Part shown: positions 2,516 through 29,881 of the stretch, one piece after another
How the letters are laid out: every line of letters starts with the position of its first letter
Position numbering within the stretch: position 1 is the stretch's first letter
Assembly (NCBI GenBank): GCA_000934665.2
Contig: JYFJ02004329.1
Span: 1 to 33,147 of the forward strand
Reading direction: 5' to 3'
Source: Catajapyx aquilonaris
Taxonomy: Eukaryota
Length of the DNA stretch: 33,147 bases
Position numbers and translations under genes: made by a program
Notes under the pieces: generated by a model
The model's database searches: none
Seen by the model: only the letters and a program-made list of their open reading frames with translations
Told to the model about the DNA's origin: nothing

Positions 2516-3097
2516 TAAATGCGTCTGGTATAGGGTTCTCAATGTAGATAATTGAAGGGTTGCCCCGAATAATGTACGTGACATTGGTGACAGTTGTCTA
2601 TAGTTTTGGTGTCCGCGGGTCCGGGAATTGGAAAAGATACATGTCCTGGGCATATACACAGACATACTGTCCGTTCGTTACGCAGGTTTTGCAGACATGT
2701 ACTTGCGTATTTTATTATAACGTGCCAGACGAACTGATTTGCTGAAATCGTCGCATTTCGCAAAAATTAAGTACGGTTGGGAGTTTTCAGATGTGACGGA
2801 GGCAAGCCGCAGATAAGTATTGATTGAATTCTTGCAAAGTACCACGATTTCAGCAAATTCGTCTGGTACAGTTCTCAATGTATATATTCCGTATATTTTA
2901 GCGTATAGGCTATTTCATAATAATTAAATCAGACTAACCGTTGGCTGGTAGCACTCGACTTTCGTTTTTTTTTACGACTGGTGAAAATAATTTTAGGGAC
3001 TTCTAAGCGACGAAAATCGCCTCCAATGCATTCATAGTGCAGACTGTATAGTGTAGAGCAGAAGTTACGTGCACTGTCAAAAAAGAACTGAAATTAT

Positions 3098-3873: not shown

Positions 3874-4095
3874 CTAATACTTCAATACAGTGAAAATTTT
3901 TGACATTAGTAGAATTTTTTTTTTGCGGAGTTACCGGTACTTTTATGCTGCTAAGCGTCACTGATGGGGTAGAAATATACCCCACGCCATAGCCAATGTA
4001 CATAATTTTTTAGAGAGCACATCACAGCAAATTGTTCTTTCGAAAGTGTGTGTGTTGTTATTCAGAAATAATTATTGCTTGGAACTTAAGGTATA

Positions 4096-4715: not shown

Positions 4716-7700
4716 TCAGTCTTGATCTAATGTTATCATCAGAACCTGCAAGCAACAATACCGATCATTGTTCTATTCGGCTATTAACTAAAAGAGAAAT
4801 GTAATAACAAATTTCTACAACTTATTGATGCCTTTCTACCCTTCCATCACAGTCTGATTTGTATCGTATACACTCTGAAGTGCAGTCCACAAGCATTGCA
4901 CACCAGCTTGCCTTAGTTCCCCTGCCATTGGAATGCGGTACTTGTTTTGCAGTTGGAGCAGCGCAATGTTTTTCCCTGTTGTTGCAAGCACACAGGATAA
5001 TCTTTTTCCATTTCATTACAAGACTTTTTTTGACCTACCAACTCTATGGATTAAGCTGTTGGTGTACGTACAGTACTACGGCACTGCATTTTAAAAATTA
5101 TCATTACATTAACCTTGCTGGCAACACATAAAAGGGAAAATGCAATTCTAGAATATCTTGGGGAAGCCAGCATCCCTGCAGTGAGCACAATCCTACACTG
5201 ACAGGAAATATCATCAGTGGTATCGAACCCTCACCCTCAAGTAGCTTATTTTCATTAGTGTGTTCAGTAATTTCTCCTCACCTTCGTTCCGTCATTCCTC
5301 CTTCCATCTGAGTCCTGATTTGGTGGATTCATCTGACTCTTGGAGAGGAGGTGGGGTCGAATGTATCTGATCCAGTACCACACTGTGGTGGTGCTGAGAC
5401 AGAATTTCCTGGCAGTTGCTTCCAGGTTGTGACGACACGAGGAATCTCCAAACTCGAATGCGTCCAGCACCTTCCTCTTCAAGTCCATCGACTGGGTGAG
5501 GGACCCAGAGGGTTCCGCTTCCCTCTGGGGAGGCTGAACGGGAAGAGGAAAAAAAAGTAATTTATTAATCACATAAGTTTGCAGTTGGCAAGTATCCGAA
5601 TCCTTCCTGCATATAACTCTGCAGCATGTTCAATGTTAATCCTTCAGAGTGGTTAGCAAACCTTCTTTTGCATTATAAGCCGTGACTTTGGATCAGTTAC
5701 ATTTAAATGTTATCACATTTAATGAGCTGCAAATGTTAGGTGGAATATGTGCATCATTCTATTGTCTTGCAATCTGCATTTTGCACCCCCATCACCGAAT
5801 AATATGATGATTCAGTTTCTTACCATTGTTTCATCGCTTGTTCTTTCCTCAGCTTTTCGCCTTGGTTGGCACGTCTGACTTTGGGCTGGGGAGGCCAGGA
5901 GATGTGGTCGGAGGAGCTTCACCCAACCCCACACTGTCACTTGTGGTAATCCAAACTTCCTTGCAGTTGACCTCATGCTGTGACGACACTTGGAATCACC
6001 AAACTCGTAGGCATCCATCACTTTCTTCTTGAAATCCAGTGACTTGCGTCCTCTCACTCGCCCTGAAGTAGGCTGCACAGGTGAGGGAAGAGACAAGATT
6101 GTTTCTCACTAATGAGGCACTTGTTGGACCAAGACATTTTAAAAATGTAGTGAGGAGGAACGTCGAGTACGCTGATGGCCGGATAGGCAGCTAAGTGTTT
6201 ATTACAACATCACAGTATCCTTGGACCGTCACCTGAAGAGGACCACTGGTCCCTGCCAACTCTTGCTTTATTACCTTCTTTCCTGCTCCCTTCTGTTTCA
6301 ATCCATCATCAGGCAAGGTGGATCCATGTTCCCCATCATCAGGCGGGAAGACATCCGAATTGGCATTAACACATCTCGTCTCCTTCTGCAACCAAGCATC
6401 AATAACACGTGAGGATTTTGATTGATTTGCATCCGAAGCATGACTTCATGAATTCTGCAGGCAGCCTCAGATAGAAAGTCTGCAGGTTTCAATATACTTC
6501 CTCAATACACTCGACTACACAACCCACAATAAGTGCCCAGCTTCAGCTTATTGTTTTCAATGGAAGAGATTGGTGCAAAAACTGGATATAAGGCCACATT
6601 TGGCCGAAGATGACTTATGGGTGGTGCTGCCCACGTGGGGCCATTCTGCATCTTTTGGTAAAAAAATCAGGTCTGTGAGGCCATCCACTGAGGAAGTACA
6701 GACCTTCCCGAAATTTTATTAGGACCACCCCACATCCAAAGGTTTTTAATTTCTACCGGCCCCTTTGACAAAGTTTGTCAAAGCGGCCAGTCCAAACCAA
6801 ATCTCTTCATGTTCGTGACAAACACAAACAAACAATGACATCATACGTTTGGCGAAGAAGTCATGCCTGAATGTGACATGCATTGATGTAAGTCATTAAA
6901 GTGGAGCAGGACGTCTGAACAGAGTGATGAGGTGTCTGATAATGAATGATGTGATGATTTTGTAACACTAAATATGCCTATAACTCAGAAAAAAAGTTTG
7001 TTGATGTTCATAGCATACACAAATATATTTTATTTGGACATGTCTGGTTCTCTCATCCGGTGCAAAAACAAGACATGCCCACATTATATTGTACTGTAGA
7101 ATGTGTAATACGCATCGTACAAACTTCATATTTTGGTGCGGATTGACTTTGGAATCATCCTATTCAACAAAAAAAATATCCTACGAAAAACTCTTTAAAT
7201 TTGTCAGAAATCCAGTTTTTATTTGTTTACTTGAAGTGCTGTACTCAAAAATCACGTTTATTTATCAGTTACCTCATTGAGTGTAACATCCTCTTTGCTG
7301 AATGATCCGATATACCTTTTTCCTATTCCCTAACATCCGATGAGCATCTTCCTTTCGTCTGCAGGCACGGAGGTGAGGTCGCATGGATTTCACCCAATGC
7401 CTCACAGTCCATGTGCTTACTCCAAACGTATTTGCAGTTGCTCCTACATTGTAACGACATTTGGAATGGTCAAACTCGTACGCATCTAGCACCTTTTCCC
7501 TGAAAGCCAGTGAGTAGGTGCGTTTCTTGTTCACAGAGATTGGCTGCAATAGAAAAATGTCAGTGATCAGTGATATGGTAGGCCTGTACCATATATATTT
7601 TTAAAGGCATAATTCCTACCAGTTAATGATGGGAAATGAGACTTACCATTGGTTTTGGCTCCTTGTCCTTTGCACTGGACATCTTGAGGTCATCAGGAAG

Positions 7701-9457
7701 GATCTTGTCCTCACTGCCTCCCTGGCTAATAAGTTCCGTCATCTTGACCAGAGCAACCAGTTTTGACTTCCTTACTCTCGCTGGCACCTCCTCCTAACAA
7801 AGTACGGATTTTACTTTAACCTTGCAAAGGGAAATGCAACTGTGGAATATCACAACAAGTCATTCCCGAAGAAGTGTGTTCTTACCTTTCGCAAACTGAG
7901 ATTTGAATATCCTCGAGATGCTTTTGAATTGCTTGTACCGTACTCATCTTTTTCATCGTTCATCTGAAGAGGAACAGTTATAAAATTTGTCTCGTGCTGC
8001 AAAATTTCCTTTTCACCTTTCTTTGCGTCCTCTTCCTTCCTGATCTCTTGTTGGGAGTGGTGTGTTTGTGTGCAGGTTCCACACCAGCCTGGATGTCACT
8101 CCTGTCATCCAAGTCGAAGTCACTCCCACACGTGTCTTCAACTACTGTTTCCATCACTTCAGGCTGCTCTGCTCTTATACCTTGGACTCCCTGAAATACC
8201 ACAATGATGCTTAAAATAGGTTCAGTGAACATTTCTGTGCATTTGCATTGCCCTAGCATTTCTTGACATCAAAAACTATGCAGCTCCAGTTCAATGTGTT
8301 GCTGGATTAGCTTCAGCTCACATCACAATAATTATTTCTAATGAGGTTGTTTACTCTACATTCAGTTGAGTTCCATAATGTTCATTAATAATTAGGGTTC
8401 ATATTTACACAGGCAAGTGACACGAACACACAGTATATTGAATGGTTGCCAATTTTGTGTGTCTGTAATTAACTGATGACCCTTACGTCCGCACGTGCTC
8501 CGTTCCGTCCAGGCCAGCCGTCAATGGAAATAAATTCGAATGAAGGTTCAGAGTCTCCTGGCAGGCCACCATCACCACCACAGTCCAGGCTGGAGCCTTC
8601 CTTCCTCTCAGGCGACTGCACTTCCTGAAACCAGGCAGCAACTGTTACGACATCTCTATGCAAAGAAGGGCATGGCCTAAACACTGCAGGATTAATCCCA
8701 CGTGGGCCATTGCCGGGAGATTTGTTGCATGAAGCTGCGCAACTGCAAGAGATAGTTGCTCACCACAATGACTTGCTCAGAGATTCCTTGTCATGAGTGA
8801 TGGCCACCCCCTGTGGCAATTTATTGTTCCAGGACACAGAAGGATGGGCCTAGTGCATCCAGCCTTCAATCTTTTTTGCTGTAACAGTACTCTTTGTATT
8901 CCTGCACAAATCTTTGTGAAATCCATTCAATAATACCCCAATTCTTCAACATGACTGCTTGTCTAACGCATACACTTGAATTCGGGATCTCAATAATTAT
9001 TGTGACGCCTGGCGTGTTGATCCTCCCATTCCGTTGATGATAATAACGGGTTCAAGGATGAAAGCCCGACCCTTTGGATATCGGACTTACAAAACTGGGC
9101 CACAACCCTCCATGCATTACATGCAATAGCTCTACAGAACCCTGTGGTCCCAAGGAATGTGGTGGGCCATCAAGCAGGAAAATGGGATTAAACCTGCTGG
9201 CCGTGTACCTGATCCCCTGTACGTCTCTCGTCCGTCTCTGTCTCCTCCGTTGTTACGACCACCCTTCCACCGGTCCATCCTTCCTCTTCCTCCTCCTGAG
9301 GCTCGACCTTCACAATGTCTGAAGGGCCATGGATGAACTGGTGGGCCCTCAGCTGGATCCTGGTCCTGAAGGTGGCGTCCAGGCAGTACACGCACCTGAA
9401 CTGCCCTTCTTCAGTGACCATGCGGCTTGGTCCATGCTGTGGCTGGTGGAGGCTCAT
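4716..9457 (-). CDS. Gene A: C2H2 zinc finger + 3 Brinker-type HTH domains (~550 aa if all exons are joined)
   Basis: Predicted exons, all AG/GT bounded and phase 0: 9457-9209 (MSLHQP..CVYCLDATFRTRIQLRAHQFIH), 8624-8487, 8190-8017, 7963-7886, 7793-7647, 7543-7316 (HTH), 6385-6275, [6232-6191 stop exon], 6072-5824 (HTH), 5533-5282 (HTH), 4745-4716 (tentative last exon VLMITLDQD*). A 5'UTR exon donor GTGAGT is at 9547-9542. Confidence 0.8.
5282..5533 (-). CDS. Gene A HTH exon A3 (constant terminal Brinker-type domain)
   Basis: 252 nt, cag|CCT..AAG|gtgagg; SMDLKRKVLDAFEFGDSSCRHNLEATARKFCLSTTTVWYWIR. Confidence 0.85.
5824..6072 (-). CDS. Gene A HTH exon A2
   Basis: 249 nt, cag|CCT..ATG|gtaaga; SLDFKKKVMDAYEFGDSKCRHSMRSTARKFGLPQVTVWGWVK. 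Confidence 0.85.
7316..7543 (-). CDS. Gene A HTH exon A1
   Basis: 228 nt, cag|CCA..AAG|gtatat; YSLAFREKVLDAYEFDHSKCRYNVGATANTFGVSTWTVRHWVK. Confidence 0.85.
9209..9457 (-). CDS. Gene A first coding exon, single C2H2 zinc finger
   Basis: F-x-C-x2-C-x4-F-x5-L-x2-H-x3-H pattern (FRCVYCLDATFRTRIQLRAHQFIH), then VKVEP and an acidic run. Acceptor at 9463, donor CAG|gtacac. Confidence 0.85.
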
Positions 9458-10183
9458 CTTCTCTGCAGGAAGAAGAGGCCTGTGCACATCCAGAACAATG
9501 TATTCAGATGCACATGAGAAGGCAGCGCAGTTGGTTCACACACTCACCAGACAAGAAGAAGACTCTTCAGGTCCAGTGGAGTAGTAAGATGAGATAAGAG
9601 AAAAGGGGGGAAAAAATAGATAAGATAAAGGAAAGTAAAGAGATGCAGATATACCCAGAAATAGCGCAACATATCCCTCCAAATTAAACTGATAGGTCAT
9701 CCACCGATATCAAGGGAAAGGAGGTTCAAAAACAGGCCATCAGCTTCCTCTGCCTTTCAGCTTAACCGCCAGTTATGCCACTATTAATGGCCTAGCCAAT
9801 CTCACTGCCGTCGTTTAAGGCCCCCCCACTTAAATTATTATTACAGAAAACGCTTATTATGACCAACCTTGGTAAAAAGGTTATTGCTCATTGAACCTCT
9901 TCACAAGTTGTCCACAACGCAAATGATGATGACAGTCGGTGTTTACGACAAACCTAACCCCTTCTCAAGAACGGTTTTGATTATTACATAATTATGCAGT
10001 ATATGAAAGTAAAATCATACTACATTTATTTTGTTCCACACGTGTACAGAGAGAGGAGGGATTCAATCAAGTACTCAGGAAAATAAATAAAAAAAACAGT
10101 TGGTTTGCATAGCAAGAATGACACTTACTGGACAAGTGAGCATTTCAGCACAAGTATACCCTTGTCAGGAAGCATCCAAGTCT

Positions 10184-10498
10184 CAACCTCGAAAAAGGTC
10201 TTATGAGGTCCCGGCTGGTTCGCCAGCGACGGTACCGTACTCTCTTCCTCGAGCGGTCCTCGGACCTGACTCGCATTTCTTGGTCGGATGGGGTGCTTGG
10301 GAGAATATCCCACCCCCGTCCCTGGGTTGGACCCGGCATTGCAGTACAGCCGGGGCCAGCCCTCCTCTCCCCCACCCTTCTCACCCACCCCCTACCTTGC
10401 AATCCCACACCTTCCTCTCCTACCCCCGGCTGCCAAGGCTCGACTCAGACAGAGCCATACAAGCTGGGTAACCCTTCCTACCAACCAACCAACCAACC
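10184..10498 (+). mobile_element. 5'-truncated non-LTR retroposon (LINE 3' end or SINE) with (CCAA)n tail
   Basis: 14-bp TSD AAGCATCCAAGTCT at 10170-10183 and 10499-10512; ends in CCAA repeats. The paralogous empty site is at ~11485-11498. Confidence 0.8.
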
Positions 10499-11751: not shown

Positions 11752-14700
11752 TCAGTCTTGATGTAGTATCGTCATCAGACCCTGCAAGAAACAACATGGA
11801 TCACTGCTGCATACATGTATAACAATAACTTTCTATAACTTATTGATGACATTCTACCCTTCCATCACAGTCCGTCATTGGAATGCGGTACTTGTTTTGC
11901 AGTTGGAGCAGTGCAATGTTATTCCCTGTTGTTGCAAGCACACAGGGAAATCCTTTTCCATGTCATTACAGGACATTTTTTCGACCTACCAACTCTATTC
12001 ATTAAGCTGTTGGTGTACGTGTAGTACTAGGGCACTGCATTTTAAAAATTATCATTACACATATAAAAGGGCAAAAGCAATTCTAGAATATCTTGGTGAA
12101 GCCAGCACCATTGCAGCTTGCTTGCTTGCAAGTACTTGAGCACAATCCTACCTACACTTGCAGGAAATATCTCCAGTGGTATCGAACCATCACCCTTAAG
12201 TACAGCTTATTATCATTAGTGTGTTCAGTAATTTCTCTTCACCTTTGTTCCGTCATTCCTCCTTCCAGCAGAGTCCTGATTTGGTGGATTCATCTGACTA
12301 TTGGGGAGGAGGTGGGGTCGAATGTATCTGATCCAGTACCACACTGTGGTGGTGCTGAGACAGAATTTCCTGGCAGTTGCTTCCAGGTTGTGACGACAAG
12401 AGGAATCTCCAAACTCAAATGCGTCCAGCACCTTCCTCTTCAAGTCCATCGACTGGGAGAGGGACCCAGAGGGTTCCGCTTCCTTCTGGGGAGGCTGAAA
12501 GGGGAAGGGAAAAAATAATAATTCAAATATCACACATATGTGCAGTTTGCAACTATCCAAATCCTTTCTGCATATAGAGCATGTTCAATGTGAATTCTTC
12601 AGTGGTTAGCGAACCTTCTTTTGCATGATAAGCAGTAACTTTGGATCAGTTACATTTAAATGTTATCACACTTATTAGCTGCAAATTTTAGGTGGATTAT
12701 ATGTGTTTATTATCTGGAAATCTTCATTTTGCTCCTCCATGTCTTTTGTAACAGAGAGTACGCTGATGGCCGGATATGCAGCTAAGAGTTAATGGTAATA
12801 TCATTTCCTCCTTGGACCATCATCTGAAGAGGATCACTTTCTCTCGTTCCTCCCTCCTACAAAATCTGGCCTCACCTTCTCTCCTGTTCCCTTCCGTTTT
12901 GCTCCCTCAGCAGGCAACGTGGACCTGGATGCCTGTTCCCCATCTGGTGCGAGGTCACCTGAGTTGGCATTACCATATCTGGTCTTCTTCTGGAACCAAC
13001 CATCATGAACACATGAGTTATTTGAAGATTAAGTTACAGCTGAAGCATGGTTTCAAGCTCACTTCAGGCAGGTTCAAATAGAAAGTCAGCCAGGAGAGAT
13101 ACGAAAACATGTCGGTAAGGGTTCACTTTAGCCCCGCCAAAACAGTGCAGGTGTCTATACATTTACTTAGTCTACTCAACGAGCTAAGTTGACTGGCACT
13201 ATTCCTAGGGTGGAGAAACCTTTACTTCAAGAGTAATTATTGAGTTGTGAAATTGCACTTAATTAACAATCAAAGAATGACAAGAAACCGGTGTTCCTTT
13301 GTTGAAGCTGTTTACTCCTGTTGTTGCATGAGGGCATCCCCATTGTAATTTGAAAAGTAATTTGCAGGCTGTGCATCCACAACATTGCTGTCGGTCTTGT
13401 GGACAGTGTTGGGTAGGATCTAGATCCCAAACGCGTGATCTATGATCTGATCTAGGTACTTTTAAAACTGAGTATCTGTACTTGTATCTAGATACTTTTT
13501 TTTATGGGATCTACGATCTAGAGATCTGAATTTTCCAGATCATGTCTTTTTTTCGAAATGTTCCTGATGCTCAAGTCATCTTCAAAAGATTATGTCAAGT
13601 CTAGGTAAAAAAAGGGGACCGAAGATGGCAAGTCAATATAATTATGTCAAAATTTGCAAGTTTATATTATTTTTTAAATCACGGAATGTATTTTTAAAAA
13701 GAACTGTGTAGGCCTGGCCTATTAATTGGATAAGCTTGTGTTTTTCAATTATACAAGTTCTCGTCTATTATGTAATTCATGCTTGTCAAAATATAGACTA
13801 ATATGTATGGGACATGCTGGGAATTTCATGATTTATTGACTAGGCCTGTATGTTTCAACTATTTTTATGCGTGTGAAATTATTCTATGTACTTATTCTAA
13901 TATTTTCAATTGCAAGGTCATTATTATTGACACATTCATCAATGGCGGATCTTTTCTCAGTGTTTTCTCTTGCAATTTAGCAATATGCCCCTGGGGCGGG
14001 TGGCAGACAATATTCAAATTCCCTGTATCCCTCTTCACTTGAACTAAACTGCTAATTGACGTAAATCACTTTAGGTTGTGCCGTGATCTGAAATCTGATC
14101 TAGATCCTTTAGAATTGAGAGATCTGAACTGGGATCTAGGTACGAAAACGCTGAAGTATCTGGGATCTGATCTAGATACATTTTTGGGTGATCTTTCCCA
14201 ACACTGCTTGTGGAGCAGTAGATGTTGCCTGAGGTGGCTCTGGCAAGGCCACAACAACGTTTGTTGACTGATTGTTAATTCATTGCAATTTCAGAAGTCC
14301 AAAACTTTTGAACCAAAGGTTTCTGCAACATACGAATAGAATCATTCGACGCAGCTCATCAAGTGGATTCCGGAAATCTATAGAAACGTGTAATAAAATA
14401 TAAAATAATTTATTTGGACATGTCTGGTTCTCATTCAGTGCTAAAACAAGACTTTGTCCCCATTATACTTCACTGCAGAATGTGTAATCGTACAAACGTC
14501 ATATTCCAGTGCATGTTGACTTTGGTATCATCCTATCCAACAAAAAATTATCATTAGAAACATTTTTGAAATTTTCCGGGAATTCAGTTTTTCCTTGTTT
14601 TCTCGAAAGTAACAAAACTGGACTTATCCTGTTTTTCCACCAAACCCTTCAATTCTTACCAGTGGTCCCTTCTTCTTGGCACTGGATGTCTTGCGGTCCT

Positions 14701-20700: not shown

Positions 20701-23700
20701 GTAACAAAACTGGACTTATCCTCTTATCCCACCAAACCCTTCAATTCTTACCAGTTGTCCCTTCTTCTTGGCACTGGATGTCTTGCGGTCCTCACTGCCT
20801 GCCTGACTCTGTCCCATCACGTTAACCCGAGCAACCAGTTTCGATCTGCTTGCTCTCGACGGCACCTAAACATGACAGGATTTTACTCAAATTTGCAAGG
20901 GGGAATGCAACTTTGCAATCACAAGCACTCCTCACTGTTGTGTTTACCTACATTTTGCAACCTTGGTTTTGAAACATCTCGAGATGATTTAGAATTTGTT
21001 GCGCTGCAGTCATCTTCTTGGACTCTCACCTGAAAAGGAATACATAGTTTAAAATCCTTTGTCTTGTCACAAACTCTCATCTGACCTTTCTTTGTGCTCT
21101 CTTCCTTCCTGCTCTCTCGTTGGGAATGGCGTGTTTGGGGCCAGGTTTCACACCAGTCGTAACTTCACCCCTCTTGTCCAAGTCGGAGTCACTGCCACAT
21201 GTCTCTTCCTGGAAACAGACAACAATGAAGTGAGGCCTTTGAAAAGGAATTGCGGCCCATCTCACAACCAAATTCTCTTCCACAAGAAACACTTCCTTAG
21301 CTGAGAGACTTGAACTTGTTCAAACTGAATTCCTCATAGGGGTTAGCATGTTTTTCAAATGTATAAACAGTATGAACCAGTCACATGGTTATCAGAAATA
21401 TTAGTTGTCAATGTTAGGTCAAACACGCACGTCCCTTGTCAATCTGGGAATCCGTATTTTTTTTTCTGCCATCACTGAGTAATCTTAAGAGTTCATTTCT
21501 TACCCTTGCTTTGTCATTTGCTCTTTCCTCAGCGTCTTGTCTTGGTTGGTGCATCTGACCTTGGGCTGAAAGGCCATGGAGATGGGGTCGGAGCTGCTTC
21601 AGCCATATCCACAACAATCCCTGGCTTAGGCCAAACTTCCTTGCAGTTGCGCTCTGGTTGTGACGACATGGGGAATCACCAAACTCATAGGCATCCAGAA
21701 CTTTATTTTTAAAGTCCAGAGAGTGATTTGATCTCTGTCTTTTCACACTCTCCTTGATTTCCTGTGGAGGTGGTGGAAAATTCAAGGTGTATATTTAGTG
21801 TATGTAATCTGACTAGCAGCCCAAAAGAAGTCAGAAATGTATGGGTGAGAAGTGTGAGCCCAGAGGGATTCAAAAACATGTACTGTACAGTAGAACCCCG
21901 ATTATCCTGGTTCTTCTCTATAACGAAAATAATATAATCTTTAAAAATAAATCCCTTGTGGGCATATCAGTGGCTTCATTATTGTGGTATTAAATTACTT
22001 TGCTTTCAGTCTGCCCTCTTTGGCATTAAAAATTGCTCACATTCTGGGTGCCTTTTCTATTGCTTTGAACTGCCCCCCTAACTGCCCAAGAACAGACTTT
22101 GAATGGATTCTCGTCTCATTCATGCCAAACACAACCTGCCAGCATCCCTTCTTACTCTTAGGGAATCAAAGGAGCAAAGGGCAACCTGCATTTCATGGAA
22201 TTGGCATTTCTGCAAGTCCCAGCAGAAGTGTGGTGATTTAGGAAAATAATAGTTCATTAACCCCCTCATTTCATGACTCGTCCTTTCACGAGTGCCTCGC
22301 CTTGATTGGTACGTACCTGACGCTGGGCTGAACGGGCAAGGCGACTTTGTCGGAGAAACTTCACCCACTGCCACACTGTTATTGGTGGCAAGCCAAACTT
22401 CCTTGCAGTTTCAGTGACATTGTGACGACATTTCGAATCACCAGACTGGTAGGCTTCCAGCACTTCCTTCTTGAAATCCAGTGAATAAAAAGGTGACTTG
22501 CGGATTTCCAGTTTCCCTGACTTTGGCTGCGGAAGAGGTGGAAAACAAACATCTTGAACATAATATATTGTCAATGCAATCTCGCTCTTTCTTTCTTTCC
22601 AGCACTGATGGGGCATGTGGCAGATTTATTAATCACTACCCGTGATCTTGAATCCATCTTAATAATCTGATGAGGCTTACCTTTTTCCTATTCCCTAACA
22701 TCTGATGAGCATCTTCCTTTGGTTGGCAGGCATGGAGGTGAGGTCGCATGGTTTTCATCCAACGCCTCACAGCACTTTCCTGTATTCCAAACTTTCTTGC
22801 AGTTGCAGCCACATTGTGATGACACTTGGAATCACCAAACTCGTACTCATCAAGCACCTCTTCCCTGAAGGGCAGTGAGTGGATGTGTCTTTTGTGGGTT
22901 GTCCCTTTTCCAGAGGTTGGCTGCAACAGATATTTATAAAAGTAGAAGAAATCTGACATCGTCAGTCATCAAGTTAACATCATTGCCCAAGGTGCTGGCC
23001 TGAGGCATCGTTTTTTTTTAAAAAATGTAATTTCTTCCTGTTCATGATGGAAAACGAATTCGAACATATTTCGAATCATTACACCTCAACTGTGCAAGAT
23101 CAATTATTTATAATGATTGTCCCAAACCCTAACTACATCAACACTCTCGCAACCAAGGCAACAGTGCATAAACTCGAAATTCGTACAAAGTACAGCCCTT
23201 TGGTACAGCCAATGTGAGTTCAAGACACTGAACGAAGTACCGAGACCACGTAGAAATTGTTATAACACATGGGGGCCAATCAGCGCGAAGCAGCCGCGTC
23301 ACATCACCCAGATGACGAAATCTCCCGCTCATTATGAAAAGAGGCACGCTGCATGGGGAAACAGGCTTTGTGCCTGCGATTAGAGACGGATTACTCGAGT
23401 TACGTGCCAGTACACGGCAGATGCTGGAGGACAGGGATGTGCCCAGTACTCACCCATCACTGTCGCCCACCACCGGAGTGCAAACGCCCGGGTTGGACCC
23501 ACTTCCTTGGCGCGCCTGACCCCACCGCTTCCCTTTCCTTCTAGTCCGACATTTTTTTTTTTGACAGAATGGGGAACTAGCCTTGGTCTGGGATTTGGGA
23601 TTTTTGTTCATAACTAGCTAGCCCATGCCCGTAAACATACATTCCATCACTCTGTTGCATCAAAATGACATTACTGGATAAATTACGGCACATTTAAAAG

Positions 23701-26700
23701 TGCCTTCAAAATTGGCGGGAAAAACGCGGCGGCCAATCGAAAGGGTACACCGAAATGCCTGGTTGACTGCGAGATATGAGGAATTTGGCTTTGAATTAAC
23801 CGCGGACACGACGGAAAGCATTCGCAAGGCGGCTGTAGGCCATCGACGTGGAGAAGGGGGGCCTTCATGTGCCGAATTCGGGTGACAGATAATTCCGACC
23901 TGGTGGCATCACTGCCACATACAAAGCGGCTTGAGCGACCTGGAATAAATACGCGCCCCGGCCGCTATCTTGCTCACGGAATGGGACGGTTGCTAACAAC
24001 AGCGAAGTATTTTACAACAATGATGGGGCGCGTTCTATAACATCATTTTTGCGTTCATTTCACTTCGCGTGACGTCAATATTTTCCAGGCAAACAGTGAC
24101 GTCACCATTTGCCTACGAAAAAACGCCAATATCTCCGGAACTGAAACTGATATCTTAAAACGGAATATGCCAAAAAAATCCAAAAAATATGGGCGAATTT
24201 ATTATGTAGTTTCCAAAATGAAGGCTACTTCCCCATTATGCACTTTGAGCCTAAATCGATTTTTTACCGCGTTCTGGGCACCTTGTGGAGTTTTGTCAGG
24301 GTTAGACTAACTACCAAAAGTTTCGGGTAATTTTTGTACAGCCACGCAAAGTTAGTGGAAATCGCGTGTTTGCGGCGTATCTGATGGGGTGCGGTAGTCA
24401 TTTCGGGGTCATTTCCTAAGTTTTCAGGGTTGAGGAACCCAATTCTGACATTTCCAAATCCCTCAGAGGCCAACTTTAGTTGTGCAGAGAGCATGATTTC
24501 CGATCGGAGCTGGCTGTCGTCTACCGACATCCACACCTTCTGCGATGATGATGAAATTAAGATGCTTGCACATTTTACCGAGTTATGGTGTTTCAATGAC
24601 CTCATATGGAGTAAATCAAACAGTAACTGACCATCCCCTATCATATTGCATGATTTTGGAATTGCCCCGTATGGAGCAATTCCAACGCTTGCTGGGAACA
24701 ATGGTTACAATGTTTTCTCAGCTATTTTCCTTTTAACATAAAATAAGTAACGAGCTGAGTAGAGAAGAGCTTCTTCCTAGGGATGTATGCACCGTACTCC
24801 CGATTATTCGTGGTTCGGATAATCTGGGCATCGCCAAAACAAAATAAAACAAAACAAGTCCGGAAAATGTCGATATTTCTGGCATACAGAGAAATTTAAC
24901 AGACTTTTGTAGAAGGCAAACTAAAGATCTATGGAAAGTTTTATAATTTTTATTTAATCTGATTTAAAGCAGCATAGACTACAGTAGTAGACATTAAAAG
25001 AGTGTAAGTTGCATCAAAAACCTGTGAATGGCTCATTGTTACGATTCTATGACCATTTTCCAATTATTTTCTGATTATCCGCTGACACCTGTGGTTTGCA
25101 AATATGACTTGTGGTAGAGAGACACAGTAGTCAATAACATTAAAAAAAAAACGTCAGTGACATAGCAAAAGAGGTGGATGGCAGATGCCGGTAGACGACA
25201 GCCAGCTCCAATAGGAACTCATGCTCTCCGCACAACGAAAGTTGGCCTCCGAGGGTTTCGGAAATGTCAGATTTGAGTTCCTCGACCTTGAAAACTTAGG
25301 AAATGACATCGCAATGACTACCGCACCTCATCAGATACGCCCCAAACACTTGATTTTCACTTACGCCGTTTTGTGCCAACCTCTCCAGGCCCTCCAGGAA
25401 TCGATTTTTGGTGATATGATAAGCACTCTCTCCCAGACAAATGGTCACAGTATTCTTGTCAACAATGTCCTTGAAATGGTGTTGGTGACAGGATGTTTCC
25501 ATGGATCCGGGTTAAGATGATGCCACACCCGCCGTACCACCTCGGACTGGCTCCCAGTGACTTTTACCTGTTCGGATCCATGGAAACACCCCTTCCCCAT
25601 TGCCATTTCGAGGACATTGTTGAACAGGAAGCCTTGTCCAGGAGTGGACAAGCCGAGCCACCAAAAAGTGGTGCCTGGAGGGGTGTGGCAGCATAACACC
25701 CGTGGTGCCAGTGCATTAGGCTCCAGGAGGAATCTCTCGATAATGAGTGCCCACCTGACCTGTGAGAGCCCTGTATTTTTGGCAAAGAAATAAACTCGTC
25801 CTGTTGGCATAGACTTGGCATTTCAGCAAGTCCCAACAAACGTATGATAATTAAAAAAATATTTCCTTTACCCTCATTTCATGAGATTCATGATTGCCTC
25901 GTCTTGATTTGTAGGCCTGACTCTGGCCTGATCGGGCAAGGAGACGGGGCAGGAGAAACTTGACCCAACCCCGCACTGTTGGCATTGGTAATCCGAACTT
26001 CCTTGCAGTTGCCCTCATGTTGTGACAACATGAGGAATCACCAGACTCGTAGGCCTCCAGTACTTTTTTCTTGAAATCCAGGGAGTATTGAGATGACGTG
26101 CGGATATGCAGATTGCTGGAGTTTGGCTGCAAAAGAGGTGGAAAACAAACATCTCAGTATATGTCTTTCCAACATTGATCTCTTTCTTTGCAGTACTCAA
26201 GCATGTTGCAGATTTACTAATTATCCTGAGTGATGTTGAGTCCTCATCCTTTTTGTTTAATAATCTGATGAGGCTTACCTTCGTCCCATTTCTTGACATC
26301 TGATGACCGTGTTCCTTTGGTTGGCAGGCAAGGAGGTGAGGTCGCATGGCTTTCACCCAATACCTCAGACCAAATGTGCTTAGTCCAAACTTCCTTGCAG
26401 TTGCATATGCATTGTGACGACATTTGGAATTGTCAAACTCGTAGACATCAAGCACCTTGTTCTTGAAGGCCAGTGAGTAGCTGTTTTGCTTACGAGTTGG
26501 CCCTTTTCCAGAAGTCTGCTGCAACGGATATTTCAAAGTAGAGGATATATGACCTCATCTGCTAAAGGCAGGCCTGTAGCATATTTTGTAATAGCATAAT
26601 TTCTTCCTGTTCATGATGGAAAACGAATTCGAACATATTTCAAATTGTTACACCTCAACTGTGCAAGATCAACTATTTATAATGATTGTTCCAAACCGGA

Positions 26701-29700
26701 ACTACATCAACAGTCTCGCAACCAAGGCAACAGTGCATAAACTCGAAATTCGAACAAAGTACAGCCAATGTGAGTTCAAAACACTGAACGAAGCACTGAG
26801 ACCACGTAGAAATGTTATAACACATGGGGGCCAATCAGCGCGAAGCACCCACCACCGGAGGGCAAACGCCCGGGTTGGACCCACTTCCTTGGCGCGGCTC
26901 ACCCTGCCACTTGCCCGTCCTTCCAGTCTGACATTATTTGTTTTTGACAGAATTATGCACTTTGAGCCTAAATCGATTTTTAGCGATTTCTGGGCACCTT
27001 GTGGAGTTTTGTCTGGGTTAGACTAACTACCAAAAGTTTTGGGTAATTTTTGTACAGCCACGCAAAGTTAGTGGAAATCGCGTGTTTGGGGCGTATCTGA
27101 TGAGGTGCGGTAGTCATTTCGGGGTCATCTCCTAAGTTTTCAGGGTCAAGGAACTCAATTCTGACATTTCCAAATCCCTCAGAGGCCAACTTTCGTTGTG
27201 CGGAGTGCATGAGTTCCGATCGGAGCTGGCTGTCGTCTACCTCCATCCACGCATTCTGCGATGATTATAAAATTAAGACATTTGCACATTTTACAGAGTT
27301 ATGGTGTTTCAATGACCTCCTCTGGAGTCAATCAAACAGTAACTGACCATTCCCTATCGTATTGCATGCGGTTGGAATTGCCCCGTATGGAGCAACCACG
27401 GGTGTGCCAACCTCTCCAGGCCCTCCAGGAACCTATTTTTGGTGATATGACAAGCACCCTCTCCCAGACAAATGGTCACAGCATTTTTGTCAACAATGCC
27501 CTTGAAATGGTGTTGGTGACGGGATTTTTCCATGGATCCCGGTTTAGATGAGTCCCCATCCTTTTTTGTTTCATAATCTGATGAGGCTTACCTTTGTCCC
27601 ATTCCTTGACATCCGATGACCATGTTCCTTTGGTTGGCAGGCAAGGAGGTGAGGTCGCATGGATCTCAACCAAAGCCTCACAGCCCATTCACTTATTCCA
27701 AACTTCTTTCCAGTTGCAGTTGCATTGTGACGACATTTGGAATTGCCAAACTCGTAGACATCAAGCACCTTATTCATGAAATCAGCCAGCGAGTGGGTGC
27801 GTGCCTTATGGGTTGTCCCCTTTCCAGAGGTCGGCTGCAACGGATATTTAAAAGTAGAGGATATATGACCTCATCTGCTCAAGGCAGGCATGGCGCATAT
27901 TTTTTAACAGCATAATTTCTTCCTATTCATAACAGAAAATGAGGCTTACCATTGATTTTGGTCCCTTGCCCTTTGCACTGGACGTCTTGAGGTCATCGGC
28001 TAGTATCGTGTCCTCACTGCCTGCCTGGCTCTGTTTCGTCATCTTGACCCACGCAAGCCGCTTCGATTTCCTTACTCTTGCTGGCACCTCCTCCTAAACA
28101 AGCGGGGATTTTACTTTAACATTGCAAAGGGAAATGCAACTGTGTGGAATCACAACAAGTCATTCCCGATGAGGTGTGTTCTTACATTTTGCAAACGGAG
28201 ATTTGAAACTTCTCCAGATGCTTTTGACTTTCTTGTACTGTACTCATCTTCTTGGACAGTCACCTGAAAAGGAATAGTTTCAATTTTGTCTCTTACTACA
28301 CACTCGCATCTCACCTTTCTTTGCGTCCTCTTCCTTCCTGATCTCTCGTTGGGAGTGGTGTGTTTGGAGGAAGGTTCCACACCAGCCTGGATTTCACTCC
28401 TGTCGTCCAAGTCGGAGTCACTCCCACATGTGTCTGCAACTATTGTTTCCATCACTTCAGGCTGCTCTGCTCTTACACCTTGGATTCCCTGAAATACCAC
28501 AATGACGCTTAAAATAGGTTCAGTGAACATTTCTCTGCTTTTGCATTGCCCTAGCATTTCTTGAGATTAACAACTATGCAGTTCCAGTTCAATGTGTTGC
28601 TGGATTAGCTTCAGCTCACATCACAATAATTATTTCTAATGAGGTTGTTTACTCTACATTCCATAATGTTCCATAATGTTCCATAATGTTCATTAATAAT
28701 TAGGGTTCATATTTACACAGGCAAGGGACACGGACACACAGTATATTGAAGGGTTGCCAATTTTGTGTGTCTGTAATTAACTGATGACCCTTACTTGATC
28801 CGCACTTGCCCTGTTCCTTCCAGGCCAGTCGTCAATGGAAATGAATTCGAATGAAGGTTCAGCGTCTCCTGGCAGGCCACCATCACCACCACAGTCCAGG
28901 CTGGAGCCTTCCTTCCTCTCAGGCGACTGCACTTCCTGAAACCAGGCAGCAACGGTTATCTATCAACAGTCTCTACGCAAAGAAGGCCATGGCCTAAACA
29001 CTGCAGAATAATCACACGTGGCCCAATACCGGGAGATTTGTTGCATGCAGTTGCGCAACAGCAAGAGGTAGTTGCTCACCACAATGACTAGCTCAGAGAT
29101 TCCTTGTCCTGAGAGGCACAGTGGCCATCCCCCCGTGTTGCAATTTATTGTTCCAGGACACAGAAGTGACGATGGGCCTTCAATCTGTTTTTCACTCTAA
29201 CAGTACTCTTTGTATTTCTCCACAAATCCTTGCGAAATCCATTCAATAATACCCCAACATTTAAACATGACCAGCTTGTGTGATTCACCCACTTGAACTG
29301 GAATCTCAATTATTGTCATGGCTGAGCTGTTGATACTCCTGTTTGGGTGATGGGTTCAAGGATGAAAACCTGACCCTTTGGATATTGTACTTATGAAAAT
29401 GAGCCACAACCCTCAATACTTTCCATACTATATTTGGACAGCTCTGCAGAACCTAGTGGTGACTAGGAACAGGCAATAGTGACCTGGACACATGGTGCAC
29501 TGAAGGGTTGCCACTTTTGCGTCTCTGCCATGAAGAGACCCTTACCTCGGCATGTGCCCTGTTCCGTCCAGGCCAGCCGTCAATGGAAATGAATTCGAAT
29601 GAAGGTTCGGCGTCTCCTGGAGGGTCACCACCACCGGAGCTCAATATGGACTCTTCCTCCTTCTGGTGCGACTGATCCCCTCCTCTAGTTGGTCTCTCCT

Positions 29701-29881
29701 GCTCCGCTGCATCCTCCTCTGGCTCCACCTTGACCTTGTCCCTGGGCCCGTGTACGAACTGGTGTGCCCTCAGCTGCAGCCTGGTCCTGAAGGTGGCGTC
29801 CAGGCAGTAGACGCACCTGAACTGCCCTTCTTCGGTGGCCATCAGGCTTGGTCCTGGTTGGGGCTGGTGGAGGCTCATCAT
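11752..29881 (-). CDS. Gene B: C2H2 zinc finger + 11 Brinker-type HTH domains (~1,560 aa if all exons are joined)
   Basis: Predicted phase-0 exons: 29881-29546 (ZF), 28935-28795, 28488-28315, 28263-28186, 28093-27950, HTH B1-B6, linkers 21208-21086, 21029-20952, 20865-20752, 20354-20181, 20128-20051, 19960-19817, HTH B7-B10, linkers 15106-14984, 14927-14850, 14773-14660, 12989-12876, [12823-12782 stop exon], HTH B11 12494-12243, tentative last exon 11781-11752 (GLMTILHQD*). Only one ZF/start exon is present, so I treat this as one gene. Confidence 0.75.
12243..12494 (-). CDS. Gene B HTH exon B11 (constant terminal domain)
   Basis: 252 nt; domain core identical in protein to A3 (..KFCLSTTTVWYWIR). 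Confidence 0.85.
13404..14206. mobile_element. Non-autonomous hAT element
   Basis: TIR CAGTGTTGGG...CCCAACACTG; 8-bp TSD CTTGTGGA at 13396-13403 and 14207-14214; dense subterminal GATCT/TATCT repeats at both ends. Confidence 0.9.
14660..15106 (-). CDS. Gene B linker exon trio (123, 78, 114 nt), second duplication unit
   Basis: EETCGSDSDLDD..RAQRK | VGVQEDDCSASNSK..LKN | VSLRATKSKL..KKKGPL; paralogous to 20752-21208. Confidence 0.7.
15330..15539 (-). CDS. Gene B HTH exon B10
   Basis: 210 nt to donor CAG|gtacgt, or 261 nt to the donor at 15279; YSLDFKKKVLEAYQSGDSKCSHNVTATARKFGLPQVTVWKWVR. Confidence 0.82.
15703..15942 (-). CDS. Gene B HTH exon B9
   Basis: 240 nt; HSLAFREEVLDAYEFDNGKCRHNLHATAIKFGISEAAVRRWVK; donor AAG|gtaagc. 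Confidence 0.85.
16440..17257 (+). mobile_element. Degenerate non-LTR retrotransposon (LINE) ORF2 fragment: pre-RT region and start of reverse transcriptase
   Basis: ISVQELKSALVALKTSSSPGIDSIPNVLLK..VPESW..VPIYKKG..PGNY, a frameshift, then RPISLTCTLGKIL..EEQAAFRPGYSTLDHLFTL; typical LINE RT N-terminal motifs. Stops and frameshifts present; left boundary approximate. Confidence 0.88.
17289..17630. mobile_element. Degenerate pogo/Tigger-like MITE (partial paralog at ~24790-25090)
   Basis: TA|CACTGTACTCCTGATTGTCC...GGAAAAACGGGAGTACTCG|TA imperfect TIRs; internal GGATAATC/GATTATC motifs. Confidence 0.4.
18085..18462. mobile_element. Two inverted degenerate mariner transposase C-terminal fragments
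   Basis: Plus strand carries a frameshifted YSPDLAPSDF-like motif and ..VQEW..WCQCIRL; an inverted, diverged copy lies at 18085-18230. Paralogous to 25375-25745. Confidence 0.65.
18603..18857 (-). CDS. Gene B HTH exon B8
   Basis: 255 nt; YSLDFKKKVLEAYESGDSSCRHNMRATAKKFGLPKGTVQRWVD; donor AGG|gtaaag. Confidence 0.85.
18923..19369. mobile_element. Foldback MITE with ~190-bp arms
   Basis: CAGGGAGCATATACTACATAAGAGGCGCAAAC ... GTTTGCGCCTCTTATGTAGTATATGCTCCCTG, flanked by a TTGC duplication. The paralogous intron at ~26190 is empty (TCTTTGCAGTACTC). Confidence 0.88.
19462..19701 (-). CDS. Gene B HTH exon B7
   Basis: 240 nt; HSLAFKNKVLDVYEFDNSKCRHNATATGKKFGIGHSTVRHWLK. Confidence 0.85.
19817..21208 (-). 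CDS. Gene B six linker exons (123, 78, 114, 174, 78, 144 nt) spanning the internal duplication junction
   Basis: All open, AG/GT bounded and multiples of 3; 20354-19817 repeats 28488-27950. Confidence 0.72.
21504..21761 (-). CDS. Gene B HTH exon B6
   Basis: 258 nt; HSLDFKNKVLDAYEFGDSPCRHNQSATARKFGLSQGLLWIWLK; donor AGG|gtaaga. Confidence 0.85.
22317..22526 (-). CDS. Gene B HTH exon B5
   Basis: 210 nt to donor CAG|gtacgt; YSLDFKKEVLEAYQSGDSKCRHNVTETARKFGLPPITVWQWVK. Confidence 0.8.
22681..22920 (-). CDS. Gene B HTH exon B4
   Basis: 240 nt; HSLPFREEVLDEYEFGDSKCHHNVAATARKFGIQESAVRRWMK. Confidence 0.85.
23571..24234. mobile_element. Non-autonomous DNA transposon, PIF/ISL2EU-like
   Basis: TIR GGGGAACTAGCCTT...AAGGCTACTTCCCC; 2-bp AT TSD, confirmed by the empty paralogous sites GAATTATG at ~26950 and ~16252. 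Confidence 0.8.
24236..25370. repeat. Composite intronic repeat with ~160-bp inverted segments (24361-24524 vs 25191-25355), probably a decayed non-autonomous DNA transposon
   Basis: GTAGACGACAGCCAGCTCC..GGAAATGTCAGA..TCAGATACG occurs on + at ~17897 and ~25191 and on - at ~24524 and ~27240. Confidence 0.7.
25375..25745. mobile_element. Two inverted degenerate mariner transposase C-terminal fragments
   Basis: Plus 25517-25745: PHPPYHLGLAPSDFYLFGSM..HFEDIVE..VQEW..WCQCIRLQ. Minus 25510-25375: GSMETSCHQHHFKDIVD..KNRFLEGLERLA. Confidence 0.75.
25872..26126 (-). CDS. Gene B HTH exon B3
   Basis: 255 nt; YSLDFKKKVLEAYESGDSSCCHNMRATARKFGLPMPTVRGWVK. Confidence 0.85.
26279..26518 (-). CDS. Gene B HTH exon B2
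   Basis: 240 nt, CAGCAG tandem acceptor; YSLAFKNKVLDVYEFDNSKCRHNAYATARKFGLSTFGLRYWVK. Confidence 0.85.
27592..27834 (-). CDS. Gene B HTH exon B1
   Basis: 243 nt, with an in-frame 3-nt insertion (HSLADF); ..VLDVYEFGNSKCRHNATATGKKFGISEWAVRLWLR. Confidence 0.85.
27950..28935 (-). CDS. Gene B linker exons 2-5 (141, 174, 78, 144 nt)
   Basis: Colinear with gene A exons 8624-7647; open frames and canonical splice sites. Confidence 0.78.
29546..29881 (-). CDS. Gene B first coding exon, single C2H2 zinc finger
   Basis: 336 nt; MMSLHQP..FRCVYCLDATFRTRLQLRAHQFVH..VKVEP..EPSFEFISIDGWPGRNRAHAE|gtaagg. Upstream UTR donor GTGAGT at 29955-29950. Confidence 0.85.

Follow-up and report, generated by a model that had tools for sequence, protein, structure and literature searches.

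The 33,147-nt stretch of Catajapyx aquilonaris DNA analysed here (the window) carries many short coding exons that appear to share one symmetric phase. This raises the question of whether such an architecture reflects exon turnover in the germ line, alternative splicing or passive inheritance. A sequence-only reading had described about 35 internal exons, all in phase 0, as interchangeable cassettes and had compared their logic with lola/mod(mdg4)/broad or Dscam.

Gene layout

All gene features lie on the minus strand. In total, 35 coding exons were delimited from the first coding exon to the last helix-turn-helix (HTH) exon, 26 in gene B and 9 in gene A. Two of these, B1 and A1, are first coding exons with an acceptor 5 nt before the ATG, so that the number of internal exons has to be lowered to 33, while the assignment to phase 0 stood for all of them. 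Each exon length given earlier was found among the delimited exons.

In the case of gene B, a predicted 5'-UTR exon end (29956..30000, donor after 29956, score 5.8) precedes B1 (29546..29886; acceptor 29886, ATG 29881, 336 nt coding, phase-0 donor), which holds a single atypical C2H2 finger, the ‘N-module’, and an acidic stretch. Four linker exons follow: B2 (S, 141 nt, 28795..28935), which duplicates the B1 3' end and donor, B3 (D, 174 nt, 28315..28488), B4 (K, 78 nt, 28186..28263) and B5 (E, 144 nt, 27950..28093). The next exons encode the Brinker-type HTH domain (BrkDBD), namely B6 (class Ha, 243 nt, 27592..27834), B7 (Ha, 240 nt, 26279..26518), B8 (Hb-long, 255 nt, 25872..26126), B9 (Ha, 240 nt, 22681..22920), B10 (Hb-short, 210 nt, 22317..22526) and B11 (Hc, 258 nt, 21504..21761). 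Linkers then recur as B12 (D', 123 nt, 21086..21208), B13 (K, 78 nt, 20952..21029), B14 (E', 114 nt, 20752..20865), B15 (D, 174 nt, 20181..20354; acceptor rebuilt at a duplication end, alternative phase-0 AG at 20399), B16 (K, 78 nt, 20051..20128) and B17 (E, 144 nt, 19817..19960). They lead to the BrkDBD exons B18 (Ha, 240 nt, 19462..19701), B19 (Hb-long, 255 nt, 18603..18857), B20 (Ha, 240 nt, 15703..15942) and B21 (Hb-short, 210 nt, 15330..15539). The chain closes with linkers B22 (D', 123 nt, 14984..15106), B23 (K, 78 nt, 14850..14927), B24 (E', 114 nt, 14660..14773) and B25 (L, 114 nt, 12876..12989; 3' end and donor common to L and D) and the conserved last BrkDBD exon B26 (Hz, 252 nt, 12243..12494).

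Gene A is shorter. Its N-module exon A1 (9209..9462; acceptor 9462, ATG 9457, 249 nt coding) is followed by linkers A2 (S, 138 nt, 8487..8624), A3 (D, 174 nt, 8017..8190), A4 (K, 78 nt, 7886..7963) and A5 (E, 147 nt, 7647..7793), the BrkDBD exon A6 (Ha, 228 nt, 7316..7543), linker A7 (L, 111 nt, 6275..6385) and the BrkDBD exons A8 (Hc, 249 nt, 5824..6072) and A9 (the conserved last exon Hz, 252 nt, 5282..5533). Of gene C, an upstream paralog, the window holds the 3' end only, with a linker L (114 nt, 32300..32413) and an Hz exon (31738..31972) in which a 17-nt deletion shifts the donor to phase 1 and a stop lies at +222.

Exon phase

As had been proposed, symmetric phase 0 was observed throughout genes A and B: at the predicted sites all 35 exons have lengths divisible by three, are free of stops and start at codon position 1, with splice dinucleotides intact, and each of the 33 internal exons is of type 0-0. 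In 32 of the 33 introns the length is not a multiple of three or an in-frame stop lies inside, so these must be removed.

A phase-blind test was carried out in which, close to each end of an exon, the AG or GT with the highest score was chosen regardless of phase, using hand-set generic weight matrices and a search stretch centred on the expected exon end. Phase 0 was obtained for 34/35 acceptors and 30/34 donors of the window (predicted sites), and for 153/170 acceptors and 165/178 donors in 12 paralog contigs; the baseline for all AG or GT in the same stretches was 48% and 42% in the window and 43% and 39% in the paralogs. Given this test, the phase-0 observation is free of circularity.

All 33 internal exons go back to copying of about six types and thus represent about 7-9 independent junctions, far below 35 independent events. 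If phase 0 is assumed to hold a share of 0.47-0.5, the chance probability for these junction types is 0.001-0.008, so the pattern still exceeds chance. An excess of phase 0 is stated in PMC3488318.

Two exons deviate in their donors. B8 and B19 have GC instead of GT at +210, the donor position of their sister exons, and would use an in-frame GT at +255 (AGG/GTAAAG), which is weak (score <1) and also phase 0. Of 156 non-first exon matches mapped by homology in the paralogs, 122 are bounded by AG..GT, in phase 0 and open, and the remaining ones are mostly long Hb exons or decayed copies. Length variants among the paralog AG..GT exons are multiples of three, except for one frameshifted Hb (matched twice) and two Hz.

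Identity of the joined domains

Pfam assigned the HTH domain to BrkDBD (PF09607), with 76 matches in the genome (G000). PDB entry 2GLO was matched by profile (E 7.6e-07) and was the top Foldseek match of the modelled HTH, with an rmsd of 1.0 but an E of only 0.024. The nearest library proteins were insect Brinkers with 2-3 domains each. The genome has a separate brk gene on another contig (C1357). The Y..C spacing is 6 residues in the family and in domain 1 of this brk gene, and 5 in 125 of 129 scorable library domains; in the tree the family does not group with the same domain 1. The HTH may have originated from the host brinker gene. Brinker (brk) recognises GC-rich Brinker sites and acts as a repressor of Dpp targets, and its orthologues are expected to carry a PxDLS-like CtBP motif and an FKPY-like Groucho motif. 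Patterns for such motifs matched none of the 36 window exons that were scanned singly; among the top 59 library proteins, looser patterns match 43 for CtBP and 34 for Groucho.

The N-module has 121 matches in the genome. It is an atypical C2H2 finger without clear relative in the library, and Pfam on the first exon returned only zf-C2H2_4 (E 0.022). In 8 of 13 distant contigs fetched, a same-strand poly-C2H2 frame lies downstream of it. The N-module donor is clearly phase 0 in 11 of 19 exons examined; of the others one is phase 2, four have no donor and three have a stronger phase-1 donor. For the downstream array acceptor phase 0 scored best in 9/10. Phase 0 therefore looks inherited, as the N-terminal finger exon also heads poly-C2H2 genes elsewhere with phase-0 joints.

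Additionally, a GATA-type finger exon with a phase-0 acceptor, absent from the earlier description, was found 306-317 nt past the last HTH exon. It is broken in all three window genes: by an in-frame stop within the finger (4915-4913) in gene A (4847..4975; halves matching PF00320 with E 0.031 and 7.3e-05), by a stop after 16 codons and deletion of the second half in gene B (11875..11925), and by a frameshift in gene C (31301..31459). The window genes may thus be decaying. The exon is intact at 8 paralog places. Of the 10 fingers detected, 9 have a phase-0 acceptor and one is without a listed AG. Altogether three unrelated folds are joined at phase 0, the N-module donor, the BrkDBD exons and the GATA and poly-C2H2 acceptors being mostly or wholly of this phase.

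Exon turnover between genes

The expectation that exons can be duplicated, lost and reshuffled without frameshift holds on the evolutionary scale, as exon order differs in all nine complete genes (9/9), which carry 3-18 BrkDBD exons each (counted by hand). Recent exon-bearing duplications, of at least 85% identity, end in introns in 6/6 cases, although intronic alignment ends can also come from later insertions. Whole exons and blocks are thus gained and lost with intronic breakpoints. Single-exon doublings are present (e.g. Hb-Hb, Ha-Ha), and the repeats are mostly multi-exon blocks. Hb follows Ha for 34/42 Ha exons (by hand), which may reflect only the short intron between them. The diversity demonstrated by these sequences is one between genes, not between isoforms.

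Diversification of the putative recognition helix

Among 94 family exons, positions 47-53, the putative recognition helix, show 79 different 7-mers. The library Brinker domains show 5 variants among 109, with a search pattern that required RR. Thus, the family has the domain of a Brinker orthologue but a hypervariable helix in place of the near-invariant H/N-R-R-Q-I/V-Q-K. The omega of positions 47-53, with their own synonymous rate, was 2.02 (LRT 17.0, p 3.7e-05), and that of the scaffold 0.50 (p 1e-14). A counting method gave a helix dN/dS of 1.7 (1.3-2.2) against whole-core dS, which is only about 1.2 against local pS (by hand: pN 0.190, pS 0.163). It is important to add that the helix positions were fixed post hoc, after the entropy table had been seen, that position 57 outside the set also reached an omega of 2.8, and that gene conversion among the repeats can push omega upwards. 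The Hz core showed a pN of 0 and a pS of 0.048. With a helix that would evolve above the neutral rate on a conserved scaffold, the chains probably differ in the DNA that they read, by analogy with KRAB/FiNZ/ZAD zinc-finger arrays.

Proposed explanation and alternatives

We consider it likely, with a probability of about 0.68, that genes A and B belong to a young, tandemly clustered transcription factor family with an inherited phase-0 backbone, exon and block turnover at intronic breakpoints and a diversifying helix. The family plan would consist of an N-terminal single-finger module, disordered linkers, an array of one-exon Brinker-type HTH domains and, in part, a GATA finger. The backbone would stem from a larger superfamily of N-module plus poly-C2H2 genes, which would have restricted recruitment to phase-0 modules and survival to copies of that phase. 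Single exons, and more frequently blocks (D-K-E-Ha, Ha-Hb, D-K-E), would then be gained or lost through unequal recombination and local duplication that break within introns, so that every gene ends up with a chain of its own, on which the putative recognition helix diverges. A transcript probably contains most of the exons, co-inclusion being assumed. Presumably the genes are expressed and spliced as predicted, the chains bind DNA and the N-module acts as a repressor module; as for the targets, transposons are only a guess.

A variant of this explanation, which we regard as unlikely but the strongest of the alternatives, keeps the same germ-line modular family and adds combinatorial splicing of gene B into several HTH chains, where the weak B8 and B19 donors, together with inverted elements, would promote skipping of exons or blocks. 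Every exon skip stays in frame, and a symmetry bias is reported for alternative exons (PMC3632108). The repeated elements of about 180 nt (unstranded) at 27067..27247 (intronic) and 25184..25364 flank B7+B8, and those at 24351..24531 and 17890..18071 (intronic) flank B9-B19; with B7-B19 also enclosed, inverted copies show 88-90% complementarity and duplex energies of -251 to -309 kcal/mol, where shuffled sequences reach -63 to -73. However, most donors are strong and conserved, and the element occurs four times in the window but once in 12 paralog contigs, which points to a recent insertion and no family mechanism.

It is distinctly improbable that the locus is a tract of segmental duplications that decays or evolves neutrally, in which phase 0 is passively inherited and no functional protein is made. 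The broken GATA exons of A, B and C, the Hz donor lost in 5/9 copies, transposon remnants in introns and stops or frameshifts in some paralog exons would agree with this, but the open, splice-intact exons of A and B, the constrained scaffold and the unchanged Hz protein core argue against it.

About as improbable is Dscam-like splicing in which neighbouring HTH exons (B6-B11, B18-B21) exclude one another. These are homologous, in the same frame, 210-258 nt long and exon-flanked, which are the sequence criteria of PMC3228551, and that study found exons of this kind to be constitutive in just 0.35% of Drosophila X genes. Yet symmetric phase is no sign of exclusivity; double inclusion carries no frame penalty; introns of at least 152 nt between HTH exons leave no steric block; genes such as A exist with only three HTH exons, separated by linkers; no conserved docking/selector pairing was found among 19 inverted repeats of at least 30 nt; and most repeats span blocks of several exons, an arrangement that PMC3228551 attributes to tandem duplication or trans-spliced groups. 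Finally, the suggested lola/mod(mdg4)/broad-like splicing, in cis or trans, of a common N-terminal module to one alternative terminal DNA-binding exon is very improbable: there are such a module and many DNA-binding exons, unspliced HTH exons reach a stop soon past the donor and the Hb-long donor is weak, but in-frame donors are conserved in paralog copies (Ha GTAAG 32/36, Hc 13/13), which marks internal and not alternative last exons, the stop after Hb-long copies lies anywhere from +273 to >+600, linker exons are interleaved, and AATAAA/ATTAAA hexamers are scattered in the window with no fixed site behind HTH exons.

Comparison with known systems

With arthropod Brinker (PF09607, 2GLO) the family shares the HTH domain by profile and model. 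It differs in carrying 3-18 domains per gene, one per exon, in its additional N-terminal finger and C-terminal GATA exon, and in its hypervariable helix, which is almost invariant in Brinker.

In pogo/Passer transposases BrkDBD is followed by HTH_Tnp_Tc5 and DDE_1. A domesticated pogo/Passer transposase, of which an ORF exists in this genome (C2235), would share the BrkDBD-class HTH; it was rejected, as Pfam detected neither a Tc5 nor a DDE domain in the scanned exons. Moreover, the family HTH has the Brinker-specific C-R-x-N segment, which the pogo domain is without, and in the midpoint-rooted tree it falls among Brinker domains, far from the pogo domain.

In the case of Dscam clusters and the variable 3' exons of lola/mod(mdg4), there are likewise many homologous exons per locus, but those of the family lie internally, with repeated linker blocks between them, and 3'-terminal variable DNA-binding exons as in lola/mod(mdg4)/broad are not seen. 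The latter genes share a common N-terminal BTB domain, for which Pfam found no match in the first exon. Symmetric-exon proteins (PMC3632108, PMC3488318) resemble the family in same-phase runs, internal tandem duplication and the inclusion of disordered linkers. Mobile animal domains prefer phase 1 (PMC3488318), whereas the family uses phase 0 and consists of nuclear DNA-binding modules.

KRAB-, FiNZ- and ZAD-ZNF proteins bind and silence transposons. Pfam, with zf-C2H2_4 as its only match, gave no KRAB or ZAD domain in the first exon, which probably holds no FiNZ domain either, and the arrays in the window are BrkDBD, tandem C2H2 arrays occurring only in distant N-module relatives. Nevertheless, the family resembles these (FiNZ after PMC10547256) in plan: many clustered genes begin with a lineage-specific N-terminal module that has an exon to itself, followed by a variable array of DNA-binding modules. 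The paralogs are likewise clustered and turn over fast, and their reading residues show positive selection, subject to the caveats of gene conversion and post-hoc sites. The difference lies in the array, which is made of HTH modules each on a separate phase-0 exon, whereas the FiNZ and KRAB arrays lie within one exon.

Exon structure and intron phase

The contig (G000:C2360), which is covered in its entirety, belongs to an assembly of 285.6 Mb. Three exon-array genes are read from its minus strand. Gene B spans 29886-11875 and gene A 9462-4847, and gene C is present with its 3' end only (32413-31301). Exons were delimited by six-frame translation combined with splice-site scans, all sites being predicted, which gave 35 coding exons, 26 of them in B and the other 9 in A. 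The sequence-only reading had described phase-0 exons that start at codon position 1 and have lengths divisible by 3. With the predicted sites this was borne out in 35/35 exons, all of them open, and each of the exon lengths it listed is present among them. Its count of about 35 internal exons holds for 33; the other two are first coding exons, with an acceptor 5 nt before the ATG. A kept intron would break or stop the frame in 32 of the 33 introns, the exception being the 51-nt B3-B4 intron, which can be read through.

B8 and B19 carry a GC at +210, where sister exons have their donor, and must use a GT at +255 that is in frame but weak. The acceptor of B15 is located at the end of a duplication. 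In the case of the HTH class Hb, the short exons (window 22317 and 15330) seem to have acquired an internal donor in phase 0 at +210, after which the tail beyond it drifted out of frame, and the long exons (25872 and 18603) keep the frame to +255.

As a control against circularity, the top-scoring AG and GT near each exon end were picked with any phase allowed. This phase-blind pick fell on phase 0 at 34/35 acceptors and 30/34 donors of the window, and at 153/170 acceptors and 165/178 donors of 12 paralog contigs, against a background in which 39-48% of all AG/GT there are in phase 0. The exons belong to about six types: the zinc-finger N-module, the linkers S, D/L, K and E, and the HTH exons (Ha, Hb, Hc, Hz). 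Linker S duplicates the end of B1, donor included, and linkers L and D have their 3' end and donor in common. Thus, about 7-9 junctions are independent. With phase 0 assumed to make up 0.47-0.5 of introns, the chance that ~7-9 junctions are all in phase 0 is about 0.001-0.008. An excess of phase 0 is stated in PMC3488318.

Altogether, the phase pattern in A and B is real and mechanistically useful, but expected. That all exons of a repeat gene have the same phase is textbook knowledge and by itself unremarkable. It is to be expected since only same-phase copies survive once the phase has been set (PMC3632108). The interest lies in the family that the pattern serves, a zinc-finger-like array system made from Brinker HTH exons.

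Identity and possible origin of the HTH modules

The HTH exons encode Brinker DNA-binding domains (BrkDBD, Pfam PF09607), with 76 matches in the assembly. Their profile matched PDB 2GLO with an E-value of 7.6e-07. 2GLO was also the top Foldseek match of the three-helix model (pLDDT 73.6), weakly so (rmsd 1.0, E 0.024), and Foldseek returned nothing for this model at E up to 0.001. The closest library relatives, as the nearest named proteins, are insect Brinkers with 2-3 domains. A full-library HMM search gave 230 matches, headed by Brinkers that have 2-3 strong domains; none had an E-value up to 1e-30, matches with 4-11 short stretches lying outside the inspection. Word-index protein searches found no family relative, either with the HTH alignment against longer proteins or with a single HTH exon against near-length proteins, each being weak evidence of absence. 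PMC8085671 concerns only the folding of Drosophila Brinker on DNA.

The genome's own brinker gene (brk) has two BrkDBD exons on contig C1357 (6592-6759 and 7581-8234 of the stretch L059). Its domain 1 ends in a phase-0 donor and carries an insertion of one residue, which few library Brinkers have; a loop longer by one residue is common to this domain and the HTH family. The loop has 6 residues in 12/14 HTH exons of the window, the other two being unscorable, and 5 in 125/129 scorable library domains. In a tree of 65 domains and 44 columns, with unsettled bootstrap and library domains only from proteins P0001-P0022, the family forms one clade (100/99) among Brinker domains, distant from the genome's pogo-type domain. 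The same 65-domain tree gave no tie of the family to brk domain 1 and no support for its position within Brinker. Therefore, the common loop is the one feature that argues for an origin of the HTH from brk domain 1.

BrkDBD is also present in Passer/pogo transposases, according to PMC7386202. An intact-looking pogo-like frame of 583 aa, with a BrkDBD, three HTH_Tnp_Tc5 stretches and DDE_1, is found on the minus strand of contig C2235 (L060:3297-5045). As this frame is without the Brinker C-R-x-N segment and distant in the tree, a transposase origin of the HTH is unlikely.

N-module, GATA finger and the probable source of phase 0

The first exon, the N-module, matches 121 places in the assembly (e.g. 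the stretches L063, L066, L068 and L072-L075). In 8/13 distant contigs the N-module is followed, on its own strand, by a poly-C2H2 frame with 5-15 fingers. The N-module donor there is clearly phase 0 in 11/19 exons (one phase 2, four without a call, three ambiguous). For the finger array, the top acceptor falls in phase 0 in 9/10 cases. The simplest reading is that a phase-0 backbone was already in place and took up the Brinker and GATA modules because they fitted it.

The N-module is a single atypical C2H2 finger, lineage-specific, with invariant C, C, F, L, H, H, D, V and E. It heads a large poly-C2H2 gene family as a KRAB/ZAD/FiNZ-like N-terminal domain without clear library relative. A word-index search with its alignment gave one weak generic zinc-finger match among 7999 scored, which is weak evidence of absence, and an Atlas search with the first exon gave only generic C2H2 clusters. 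Some genes repeat the N-module two or three times within one frame (L070:1942-2565, L071:1698-2093). Closer N-module relatives on C3915, C3875 and C5425 (L076-L078) have a linker exon in which motifs resembling those of E and D are combined; the stretches of them that were scanned showed no HTH. Linkers D and E may have a common ancestor. A Pfam scan of linkers D, E, S, L and K returned nothing.

An exon overlooked by the sequence-only reading encodes a GATA-type finger and has a phase-0 acceptor. It lies downstream of Hz, the last HTH exon, by 306 nt in A and 317 nt in B. Its presence there implies that Hz was internal, and the notion of Hz as the ancestral last exon was dropped. The GATA exon is damaged in all three genes: A has an in-frame stop, B has a deletion in addition to a stop, and C has frameshifts. 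It is intact at 8 places on 6 paralog contigs, the copy on C8971 matching PF00320 with an E-value of 6.9e-13. The Hz donor is lost in 5/9 copies. As judged from predicted sites, the phase-0 rule holds as long as a joint is live and decays once the exon downstream of it has died. On C6841 (L025:7255-7540) an HTH exon runs, out of frame, into the latter half of a GATA exon, through a deletion whose breakpoint lies inside exons.

Germ-line shuffling and splicing

Nine complete genes on 6 contigs show nine different exon orders, with 3-18 HTH exons by a hand count in which short K exons may be missed. In the window, 6/6 exon-bearing duplications of at least 85% identity end in introns; they span D-K-E-Ha, Ha-Hb, D-K-E, Ha, Ha and Hb. 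Doublings of single exons are present in the paralogs. The differing orders and the intronic duplication ends uphold the germ-line half of the claim that exons can be duplicated or lost without frameshift. As a refinement, blocks move more often than single exons.

Several remnants and repeats were observed between the exons. The B19-B20 intron holds a frameshifted reverse-transcriptase fragment (16700-17343, plus strand; RVT_1, E 3.3e-06), probably a LINE-type remnant. A duplicated intronic remnant (18100-18530 and 25381-25800), mariner-like by eye, was copied along with the Hb-long exon; a Pfam scan of the two mariner-like-looking frames gave nothing. Nested inverted repeats (I8, I10, I12, I14) form a 450-nt foldback in the B18-B19 intron (18923-19372), probably a MITE. 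A further inverted pair lies at 3093-3878 and an (AAT)n microsatellite at 841-912.

Regarding splicing, plain skipping of B8 and B19 is plausible, and an inserted 180-nt element would pair strongly, inverted, around B7+B8 and B9-B19. However, this element occurs only once in 12 paralog contigs and is therefore not a mechanism of the family. For a Dscam-type, mutually exclusive choice among adjacent HTH exons the picture is mixed. Neighbouring HTH exons qualify under the sequence criteria of PMC3228551, a study which found exons of this kind to be constitutive in just 0.35% of Drosophila X genes. However, the same study attributes recurring groups of several exons to tandem duplication or trans-splicing, HTH exons are separated by introns of at least 152 nt, and double inclusion would carry no frame cost. 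Furthermore, Hb follows 34/42 Ha exons, which would suit a paired unit, although block inheritance explains the pairing too. The proposed comparison with lola and mod(mdg4), where terminal exons are the varied ones (PMC3228551, PMC6237743), fails because Ha and Hc retain a strong in-frame donor, GTAAG, in 32/36 and 13/13 paralog copies, respectively.

In the reading preferred here with moderate confidence, germ-line shuffling on a phase-0 backbone, phase 0 explains how C2H2 arrays, Brinker HTH domains and the GATA finger, three DNA-binding folds unrelated to one another, can replace each other behind one N-terminal module, as well as HTH numbers of 3 to 18 among young paralogs.

Selection on the HTH exons and comparison with known systems

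The analysis used 94 of 96 distinct open HTH exons, two being dropped for gaps; stop-bearing or AG-less exons were excluded. Positions 47-53 cover the turn and the start of the third helix of the predicted model, which, from the 2GLO alignment and general knowledge of HTH proteins, we take to be the recognition helix. These positions hold 79 different 7-mers in the 94 exons, vs 5 in 109 library Brinker domains retrieved with an RR-requiring pattern. Codon likelihood in our own implementation gave an omega of 2.02 at 47-53 with its own synonymous rate (LRT 17.0, p 3.7e-05) and 0.50 for the rest, the sites having been chosen after inspection of the entropy table and the model ignoring gene conversion. 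Over 30 sister pairs, the counting method put the ratio at 1.7 (1.3-2.2) relative to core dS, and at only about 1.2 relative to local pS. Position 57, outside the chosen set, is also fast. Hz is the exception (pN 0, pS 0.048).

Because a single scaffold carries 79 natural variants of the helix, a helix-turn-helix recognition code becomes directly testable. The family could also show if arms races of the zinc-finger kind are possible with a different fold. Among the papers listed by open-access literature searches, none dealt with a family of poly-Brinker genes. We consider it improbable that the KRAB-zinc-finger strategy was re-invented here in full, with Brinker HTH exons behind a lineage-specific effector finger, shuffled modules, a transposon-aimed function and exon skipping that yields many specificities per gene. 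Such a system would be a programmable reader of one module per exon, with the shuffling of exon blocks and substitutions in the helix as its germ-line sources of diversity. If true, a developmental repressor domain would have become a programmable DNA reader in this lineage. The selection pattern of the HTH exons resembles that of FiNZ- and KRAB-ZNF genes (PMC10547256) and of ZAD-ZNF genes (PMC7913770).
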